NCBI RefSeq assembly: GCF_024298765.1 | Contig: NZ_CP101210.1 | Length of the DNA: 64,000 bases | Direction: 5' to 3' (one strand) | Source: Escherichia coli | GTDB lineage: Bacteria > Pseudomonadota > Gammaproteobacteria > Enterobacterales > Enterobacteriaceae | Shown here: positions 19,073 to 19,478 of the stretch, one piece after another | Position numbering within the stretch: the first letter of the stretch is position 1 | Layout: each line of letters opens with the position of its first letter | Position numbers and translations under genes: made by a program | Notes under the pieces: generated by a model | Database searches by the model: none | Seen by the model: the letters and a program-made list of their open reading frames with translations, nothing else | Told to the model about the DNA's origin: nothing

Positions 19073-19478
19073 TTTGCAATATCTATGAAGAATTATTTGT
19101 GAGACGTATATTAATGATCATTGCAAGGGCTCACAACCAGTAGTGTTGAGAAAACCATCGGAGAAATGAGGCTAAGCCTTTGAATTTACATAGTACAAAA
19201 AAGATACTTTTCCTCATAATGTGAGCTAATTTTATGTTTCGTTTGATGATTGGACCGGTCTCGAAAACCGTAGACACATAGTATGCGTTAATTTATGAAC
19301 AAACTACTTGTCTGCTGTTTTTCTGTCATTAGTCGTATATAGAATGATTCTCTATGCCTAACAAAGCATCACCAGTGCTAGATTACGTTGTAGTCACTGT
19401 TTAAATATCCAGATAAAACATTTCCTTCTGGGTTGAATGAGTGATAAAGTTTCACCCATTAGACCCCTTGGAGGAATT

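Follow-up and report, generated by a model that had tools for sequence, protein, structure and literature searches.

A 406-bp noncoding gap lies between a gene for a GIY-YIG nuclease and the methylase gene of an EcoRII-type restriction-modification (R-M) pair in a 64,000-nt stretch of Escherichia coli DNA (contig NZ_CP101210.1), the whole of which is called the window here. This gap is probably a seam between two independently acquired phage-defence cassettes, wherein the 83 bp on the methylase side carry a predicted LexA operator along with a promoter-operator for the methylase gene, ecoRIIM. We establish the mosaic structure of the gap, the identities of the genes that flank it, and the conservation of its motifs with the accompanying statistics. 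Judged from sequence and conservation, positions 19395 to 19478 would constitute a compact ecoRIIM promoter-operator block, and the putative LexA operator within it is apparently a conserved feature that has not been described. In the following, M and R denote the methylase and the restriction endonuclease.

The seam and the segments that it joins are as follows.

19073 to 19478, no strand: whole intergenic gap, 406 bp, composed of three segments with different histories.
19073 to 19286, minus strand: segment A, the 5′ flank of the nuclease (PD-T4-3/CMoRE) gene, which goes with that gene whatever adjoins beyond.
19287 to 19394, no strand: segment B, a filler present only in genomes with the full CMoRE-EcoRII arrangement.

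The division into segments emerged from searches made with the gap sequence alone. Segment A (gap positions 1 to 201/214; 19073 to about 19273/19286) gives matches of 90 to 99% on many E. coli chromosomes that lack the rest of the gap, and these left ~200 to 214 bp accompany the nuclease gene in several hundred E. coli genomes without the R-M pair. Segment C (gap positions 324 to 406; 19396 to 19478) is matched at 85 to 89% on 2018 enterobacterial plasmid records, most of them from plasmids predicted to be conjugative, where it stands directly upstream of an EcoRII-type M gene. Most of segment B is present in 261 records, essentially all of which are the full arrangement. The alignments break sharply at 19270 to 19273, at 19286, and at 19395/6, wherein the homology of segment A to other prophages stops at 19270/19273 (O157) or at 19286 (XJ6-3). 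At the right-hand break begins the EcoRII module common to prophage and plasmid copies, which runs from 19396 to about 22228.

The neighbors of each cassette change in the same manner. In O157:H7, an AraC-family gene comes after the same pair of pinE and nuclease genes and the locus has no EcoRII, and in XJ6-3 and L007 other genes follow pinE, the nuclease gene, and segment A. APEC O78 (L087) carries a 74%-identical segment A core upstream of a different cargo gene, which encodes a Clp-fold serine protease. The nuclease gene was found in 967 of 5426 complete E. coli genomes and the full arrangement in 244, about 210 of which have it at an identity of at least 99%, and the M upstream block occurs on ~2000 plasmids that have no nuclease gene beside it. 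Strains with this prophage include 2015C-3163, IAI39, and Shiga toxin-producing E. coli of types O103:H2 and O121. Comparison of segment B with the backbone of related prophages yielded only a weak local similarity of 21 nt. An origin of segment B in the prophage backbone was rejected on this basis, since 7 to 52 of 500 shuffles, varying with the target, gave a match at least as good as the 21-nt one.

The methylase-side block begins with the predicted LexA operator, which ranks among the best LexA matches in the 64 kb of the window.

19395 to 19414, no strand: predicted LexA operator (SOS box) CACTGTTTAAATATCCAGAT upstream of ecoRIIM, at the left edge of the EcoRII module; 19.1 bits, second in 64 kb.
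26599: recN box; 23.7 bits, first in 64 kb.
26577: recN box; 15.4 bits, third in 64 kb.
26559: recN box; 12.9 bits, fourth in 64 kb.

These scores come from a weight matrix built on 22 E. coli operators known from the literature, from which recN was deliberately excluded, and the training operators themselves score 13.6 to 26.7 bits. The three boxes (26559 to 26618) upstream of recN (24889 to 26550, minus strand) serve as an internal positive control. Matches of at least 19 bits are expected 0.01 times per 64-kb shuffle, and shuffles of the gap itself reach this threshold in 10 of 20,000 cases. The site has the CTGT-N8-(A/C)CAG form and the AT-rich interior of gammaproteobacterial SOS boxes, among which we compared it with that of uvrB (AACTGTTTTTTTATCCAGTA), and it scores above two of the three recN boxes. 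It differs from such boxes in that it lies just upstream of a predicted −35 element, not over the core promoter, and in that it stands beside a mobile R-M gene instead of a repair gene.

To evaluate conservation, we took the regions upstream of M from 23 gammaproteobacterial relatives with the full N-terminal domain (Kluyvera, Pantoea, Leclercia, Erwinia, Rouxiella, Trabulsiella, Citrobacter, Salmonella arizonae, Edwardsiella, Yersinia, Brenneria, and Pseudomonas, plus a plasmid). A LexA box of at least 14 bits occurs within 200 nt upstream of M in 23 of 23 relatives, while the remaining ~208 kb of these loci contain only three further matches at that threshold. The box is located at −82 to −93 from the ATG (−164 in Pseudomonas). 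Only the LexA contact triplets CTG and CAG (CTG-N10-CAG) are invariant within it, and the interior varies.

The position is also occupied in more distant relatives. Each of five alphaproteobacterial EcoRII-like loci (Hyphomonas, Euryhalocaulis, and a Rhodobacterales genome) has an alpha-type LexA direct repeat at the equivalent position, either GAAC-N7-GAAC or GTTC-N7-GTTC by the clade-specific motif definitions (PMC4951493), wherein the seven spacer bases differ between loci. Of the nine alpha-type repeats present in ~49 kb, eight are those at this equivalent position. This apparent switch of the LexA motif with the host clade is, among sequence comparisons, the strongest test of the assignment. 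Thus, both the strength of the motif and its conservation in orthologous promoters, in a form that follows the host clade, match what is expected of a LexA operator. We regard it as an even chance that EcoRII-family R-M systems across Gamma- and Alphaproteobacteria have an ancestral and conserved input from SOS (LexA) control.

The CTG-N10-CAG element could instead be something other than a LexA site, such as an outer part of the M operator, an UP-like AT-rich element, or a sequence conserved by descent alone. Its location outside the core promoter would suit this explanation, as would the close relatedness of the enterobacterial loci, and M.EcoRII is said to protect a long region of about 47 to 49 bp. 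We nevertheless consider it distinctly unlikely, given that invariance is confined to the LexA contact triplets and the interior is free to vary, that the score lies in the range of real operators, and that the diverged Yersinia, Rouxiella, Brenneria, and Pseudomonas loci keep the box though their flanks have changed. Moreover, a LexA motif of their own replaces it in the alphaproteobacterial relatives, a substitution not expected under an M-operator model.

Several points weigh against a LexA operator and promoter as we describe them. The training sites of the matrix were drawn from the literature at large, not from downloaded records. The 23 relatives share ancestry and are not 23 independent events, and some marine gammaproteobacterial relatives have only weak boxes of 5 to 12 bits. 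A LexA box of the Cheo type was found near M in 0 of 41 non-proteobacterial relatives, mostly Firmicutes; the link to LexA therefore seems confined to Proteobacteria, and the method does not return a positive result everywhere. The box lies outside the core promoter, at approximately −63 to −44, where binding need not repress. With regard to the promoter, sigma-70-like position weight matrix (PWM) scores of at least 7 are common (~2.3 per kb per strand), and a consensus promoter and terminator scan of 18900 to 19650 detected neither a terminator nor any promoter within the gap. Where transcription starts, which proteins bind, and how strongly and in which direction SOS would act at the locus are all inferred. 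Finally, no paper linking EcoRII to LexA and no mention of a LexA operator in classical EcoRII was found among searchable papers, which do not cover the original studies of the EcoRII promoter (Som and Friedman 1993, 1994), and a box or an SOS test may already be in the latter.

Between the right end of the box and the predicted −35 element, which belongs to a start site that is itself predicted, there are 7 bp, and the effect of the box could be weak or could operate via the polymerase alpha subunit or an UP-like element. No comparable module is present upstream of dcm, the orphan homologue in K-12. The Rouxiella silvae locus (L015, 6663 to 6682) has a second, strong LexA-type box (23.6 bits) ~600 nt upstream of M.

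Between the LexA box and the methylase start codon, the block contains the following elements, which are listed here with the genes of the R-M pair.

19422 to 19450, plus strand: predicted ecoRIIM promoter, with −35 TTCCTT (19422 to 19427), a 17-nt spacer, and extended −10 TGaTAAAGT (19442 to 19450).
19428 to 19433, no strand: CTGGGT block, invariant at C, GGG, and the final T, with T as second base in at least 90% of relatives.
19441 to 19455, no strand: 15-bp palindrome GTGATAAAGTTTCAC, 6-N3-6 (GTGATA-N3-TATCAC type), embedding the extended −10.
19479 to 20912, plus strand: EcoRII-type C5 cytosine methyltransferase (Pfam DNA_meth_N and DNA_methylase), with an N-terminal regulatory domain.
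20947 to 22161, minus strand: EcoRII-type restriction endonuclease (Pfam EcoRII-N and EcoRII-C), convergent with M.

The N-terminal domain of M is a match to Pfam PF18284 (DNA_meth_N; E 6.6e-27, residues 28 to 84), and the protein is 92% identical to the plasmid copies. The methylase ATG at 19479 is preceded by GGAGG at 19470 to 19474. In the alignment of M upstream regions, nothing before 19395 is conserved. The invariant bases, as read from 14 diverged aligned relatives, are CTG (19397 to 19399), CAG (19410 to 19412), TT (19422 to 19423), C (19428), GGGT (19430 to 19433), GTGATA (19441 to 19446), T (19450), A (19454), CCC (19464 to 19466), and the ATG. This pattern fits a sigma-70 promoter, as the invariant positions would include the TT of the −35 element as well as the TG and the TA...T of the extended −10 (PWM 6.6 to 7.2 bits). 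Transcription is predicted to start near 19457, which would give a leader of ~21 nt. The CTGGGT block and the invariant CCC flank the palindrome in 14 of 14 aligned relatives, and no promoter or operator model accounts for either. The TCTGG at this block is one base off the EcoRII site CCWGG.

The palindrome is found at −37 to −46 in 18 of the 23 relatives. Its 6-bp arms are perfect in Trabulsiella (L017), Edwardsiella (L022), and both Rouxiella copies (L023 and L032), and its right arm is degenerate in four Yersinia loci and Brenneria. We predict that this element is the operator for the N-terminal domain of M.EcoRII. The classical enzyme represses its own gene through this fused domain and leaves R unaffected, as reported by Som and Friedman (1993, 1994) according to the summaries in PMC12707154 and PMC3874152. 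Because the methylase here is 92% identical to that of plasmid EcoRII and its upstream DNA is 85 to 89% identical to ~2000 plasmid copies, we infer that it likewise binds the operator and represses its own transcription at this locus. The classical module is also alike in its N-terminal domain and in its convergent R with both EcoRII domains. It differs in context, wherein the module here resides in a prophage next to ssrA and beside CMoRE.

The arrangement conforms to the autoregulated EcoRII/SsoII/MspI class, having both the N-terminal regulatory domain and an upstream palindrome that overlaps the predicted promoter. A close parallel is the SsoII/Ecl18kI operator, a single 15-bp 6-N3-6 palindrome just upstream of M that overlaps the M promoter and is bound by the N-terminal helix-turn-helix domain of the methylase (PMC2760811). 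The half-sites differ (AGGACA in SsoII/Ecl18kI, GTGATA here). In addition, R of SsoII is divergent, with its promoter inside M, such that the operator couples R and M, whereas the convergent R of EcoRII is reportedly not affected. Among the five alphaproteobacterial loci (L038 to L041 and L052; positions ~2700 to 2790), four carry a palindrome GACA-N3-TGTC a few tens of bases after the LexA repeat, and this sequence is close to the SsoII operator AGGACAAATTGTCCT.

On the other side of the gap, the nuclease also proved to be a known defense enzyme, and its gene has a candidate promoter in segment A.

18299 to 19072, minus strand: PD-T4-3/CMoRE gene (Pfam LEM-3_GIY-YIG; PADLOC PD-T4-3).
19108 to 19136, minus strand: candidate CMoRE promoter, with −35 TTGTGA (19136 to 19131), a 17-nt spacer, and −10 TAATAT (19113 to 19108).

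The open reading frame, which starts at 19072 on the minus strand, matches the PADLOC model for PD-T4-3 over its full length (PDLC04031; E 4.7e-140, residues 1 to 256) and is ~98% identical to PDB 9U75, the CMoRE protein of E. coli O157:H7 (E 2.4e-171), and the GIYxY-YIG motif is visible as WYVYRL...FYVGKG. The "orphan" nuclease of the first-pass annotation is thus PD-T4-3/CMoRE, a characterized stand-alone type IV enzyme (PMC12923530; Vassallo et al. 2022 as cited there). As a member of this family it shows no difference at the protein level, and only its neighbor, EcoRII, sets it apart from the O157 locus. CMoRE is a single-component enzyme that cleaves DNA containing 5-hydroxymethylcytosine (5hmC) and glucosyl-5hmC and leaves unmodified and 5-methylcytosine (5mC) DNA uncut (PMC12923530). 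Under its "native promoter," of which the cloned extent is unstated, the O157:H7 gene provides ~10^5-fold protection against phages T2, T4, and T6 (PMC12923530). A deletion study found PD-T4-3 to be active in its native host, strain NILS69, and PD-T4-3 is condition-responsive in strain IAI46, in copies that may lie in another context. Because CMoRE is self-sufficient as a single gene, the nuclease needs no R-M partner, and because it tolerates 5mC, it is compatible with a neighboring C5 methylase.

Segment A presumably carries the CMoRE promoter. The best candidate, with a predicted start near 19101, has the top score on either strand of 19000 to 19540 (PWM 8.8 bits), in a setting where scores of at least 8 occur ~0.9 times per kb per strand, which makes this score weak evidence. 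Phylogenetic footprinting of the nuclease promoter was uninformative, in that the copies are either 90 to 99% alike or have unrelated upstream regions (APEC O1 type). A CMoRE locus of the latter type (L089, strain SF-166) is also near ssrA and has a tRNA-like 3′ fragment upstream, and at about 3640 to 3720 of the same locus two LexA-type boxes precede a decayed dinI-like gene.

The first-pass annotation had held that the gap must contain the promoters of both genes, and one promoter per gene is indeed very probable on grounds of prediction and conservation. This is because the 83 bp are kept wherever an EcoRII-type M occurs and display a sigma-70 pattern, because ~200 bp stay with the nuclease gene in contexts without R-M, and because the near-identical O157:H7 gene defends under its "native promoter" (PMC12923530). 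It was also correct that the gap is the longest noncoding stretch in the cargo block, that it is very AT-rich, and that the nuclease (minus strand) and methyltransferase (plus strand) genes flanking it are divergent. The other gaps of the block measure 57 bp (18242 to 18298), 34 bp (20913 to 20946), and 228 bp (22162 to 22389). The G+C content of the gap is 35.5%, as compared with 42 to 45% in the flanking genes and 51% in the whole window. When the 64 kb are scanned in 406-bp windows, just 0.12% of these prove equally AT-rich and every one of them overlaps the gap, which itself has the lowest G+C content of any 406-bp stretch in the window. This composition, AT-rich relative to the host, fits with H-NS silencing of the tract.

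What did not hold is the further proposal that co-regulation ties the nuclease to the R-M pair. On this hypothesis, the gap would be one bidirectional control region with co-regulated promoters, for example through joint H-NS silencing, and the nuclease would be linked to the EcoRII pair. The divergent genes and the uniformly AT-rich gap (35 to 36% G+C in each of the three segments) are what it calls for, since H-NS spreading over an AT-rich tract could damp both promoters. Moreover, the nuclease side would be insulated by a hairpin of which only a truncated copy is present here, and the arrangement is at least 99% identical in about 210 genomes. However, the two sides move separately, as indicated by the 967 versus 244 genomes and by the ~2000 plasmids with the M side only. 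The conserved elements lie no more than 85 bp from the M start, the best candidate promoters are ~350 bp apart, and no conserved element or shared operator common to the nuclease and methylase sides was found, nor any LexA-like match above 8 bits in segment A. Neither joint inheritance nor back-to-back promoters that share sites, the marks of a shared bidirectional promoter, is observed. In addition, the nuclease gene of an O157 locus without EcoRII is functional by itself, and PD-T4-3 is active in one native host (NILS69). We therefore view joint control as very unlikely. The connection between the nuclease and the R-M pair is one of complementary target range, hypermodified versus unmodified DNA, and not of shared control.

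A distinct feature marks the right end of segment A.

19259 to 19286, no strand: junction element, consisting of the 11-mer TCTCGAAAACC (19259 to 19269) followed by a truncated hairpin copy (19268 to 19286).

The prophage in which it lies makes up the left part of the window and encodes a site-specific integrase, CI/Cro-type regulators, a terminase, an HK97-type head, a contractile tail, and an invertible tail-fiber segment with pinE (17651 to 18241). It is integrated at ssrA, abutting the 3′ end of that gene (transfer-messenger RNA [tmRNA], 22390 to 22752, minus strand), with smpB next, and the gap is at its right end, where three cargo genes stand between pinE and ssrA. This prophage is e14/SfV-like, and its cargo slot is bounded by the pin invertase and the attachment site at ssrA. 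A query of the gap against a phage collection returned no match. In e14 the corresponding slot has pinE and then mcrA, and both prophages have a restriction-type defense gene directly downstream of the tail-fiber invertase at the prophage end; the two differ in their cargo genes and in their attachment sites (icd in e14, ssrA here).

The 11-mer TCTCGAAAACC is an exact copy of the left half of the genuine pixL, one of the pix inversion sites flanking the tail-fiber segment (15743 to 15766 and 17608 to 17632), and the O157 homology breaks two bases after it. The hairpin element, CCGTAGCACG-N13-CGTGCTGCGG, occurs directly after the pinE stop codon (18244 to 18276), and this copy and the truncated one bracket the CMoRE cassette. 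XJ6-3, L007, and APEC O78 have this second copy in intact form, with arm sequences that differ between copies, and a third copy follows a 28-bp ssrA 3′ fragment in L006 (4798 to 4830). The element may be a bidirectional terminator or a cassette junction. A weak Rfam match to CssrB (18219 to 18275; E 0.0016, with 31 bits where the gathering score is 76) overlaps the hairpin that follows pinE. Another hairpin, the GC-rich AAAAAGCCCGCATAAGCGGGCTTTTG (22238 to 22263), has A and T runs on each side, resembles a bidirectional terminator, and is located between the EcoRII module and ssrA, just beyond the segment common to the plasmids. With regard to the end of segment A, a tRNA-like reading was rejected, as ARAGORN finds only the tmRNA and no convincing T-arm is seen by eye.

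These features suggest that cargo is exchanged at a defined junction, wherein a pseudo-pix site and the T-tract of a terminator are not separated as its basis. A stronger version holds that the breakpoints are recombination scars, at which cassettes were swapped at the pseudo-pix site or hairpin by the Pin invertase or by illegitimate or site-specific recombination. We judge this version unlikely, as we do, to the same degree, its corollary that the gap is mainly a junction without further function, which complements the two-cassette explanation rather than opposing it. The recurrence of the pixL 11-mer, the O157 break at what would be the central dinucleotide, the CMoRE cassette between two hairpin copies, and the third copy after an ssrA fragment in L006 are all as expected from such swaps. 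Yet the match is to one half-site only, the same 11-mer can be read as the T-tract of a terminator-like hairpin, and an 11-mer of this kind would turn up by chance somewhere in the window with a probability of ~0.03, too high to neglect. Serine invertases, furthermore, normally do not catalyze intermolecular insertion.

An unannotated small gene or small RNA might also explain the length and the conservation of the gap. The plus-strand promoter-like sequence TTGAAT-17-GATACT (19180 to 19208), kept as TTGAAT-17-GATAAT in APEC O78 (L087), and the fact that two different cargo genes have a conserved segment A core upstream could be taken in this way. That promoter-like site points away from the nuclease gene, and no product was identified for it. 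Against a small RNA, a search of 17500 to 24000 with Rfam at E up to 1 produced nothing in the gap (the tmRNA and weak matches lie elsewhere), and the fold of a minus-strand transcript of 19073 to 19300 is no better than those of shuffles (z = −0.38). The longest open reading frame in the gap, of 48 amino acids (19131 to 19277, minus strand), was rejected as a gene because the APEC O78 copy has several indels not divisible by three, and the homologous gap in identical genomes has no RefSeq annotation. A hidden gene or RNA is accordingly a highly improbable explanation. We also rejected the idea of CCWGG sites acting as a methylation-sensitive switch, since none is in the gap. The window as a whole has 153 such sites (106 ± 10 in shuffles), and the cargo block has three only (18768, 20751, and 21689).

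With the gap read as a seam that bears a methylase control block, the following mechanism can be proposed. Transcription of the methylase would be held down jointly by the methylase itself, bound at the palindrome, and by LexA, bound just upstream of the −35 element. DNA damage would cleave LexA and raise methylase synthesis, wherein the source of damage might be EcoRII cutting of under-methylated host DNA, incoming single-stranded DNA, or a prophage-inducing signal. The stop codons of the convergent M and R genes are just 34 bp apart, and increased transcription of M might for this reason interfere with R. The nuclease and the R-M pair would be neighbors with complementary targets and not a co-regulated unit.

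As first described, the gap is ordinary intergenic DNA, and its interest lies in the 83-bp methylase control block. The prophage slot stacks complementary enzymes, a type II system acting on unmodified DNA and a type IV enzyme acting on 5hmC and glucosyl-5hmC DNA, the latter reportedly ignoring the 5mC made by its neighbor. If the proposed control is correct, then the methylase, the "antitoxin" of the pair, would respond to a sensor of DNA damage in addition to its own concentration. Protective methylation would then increase upon self-restriction, conjugative entry, or prophage induction, R expression might drop as a consequence of convergence, and SOS could account for part of the classical induction of ecoRIIM by 5-azacytidine. 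The regulation of EcoRII, a textbook R-M system, is ascribed to methylase autorepression alone, and a conserved LexA operator would add a DNA-damage feedback loop to it. Such a loop, if true, would explain how self-killing is limited, how the system becomes established after transfer, and how prophage-borne copies behave upon induction.

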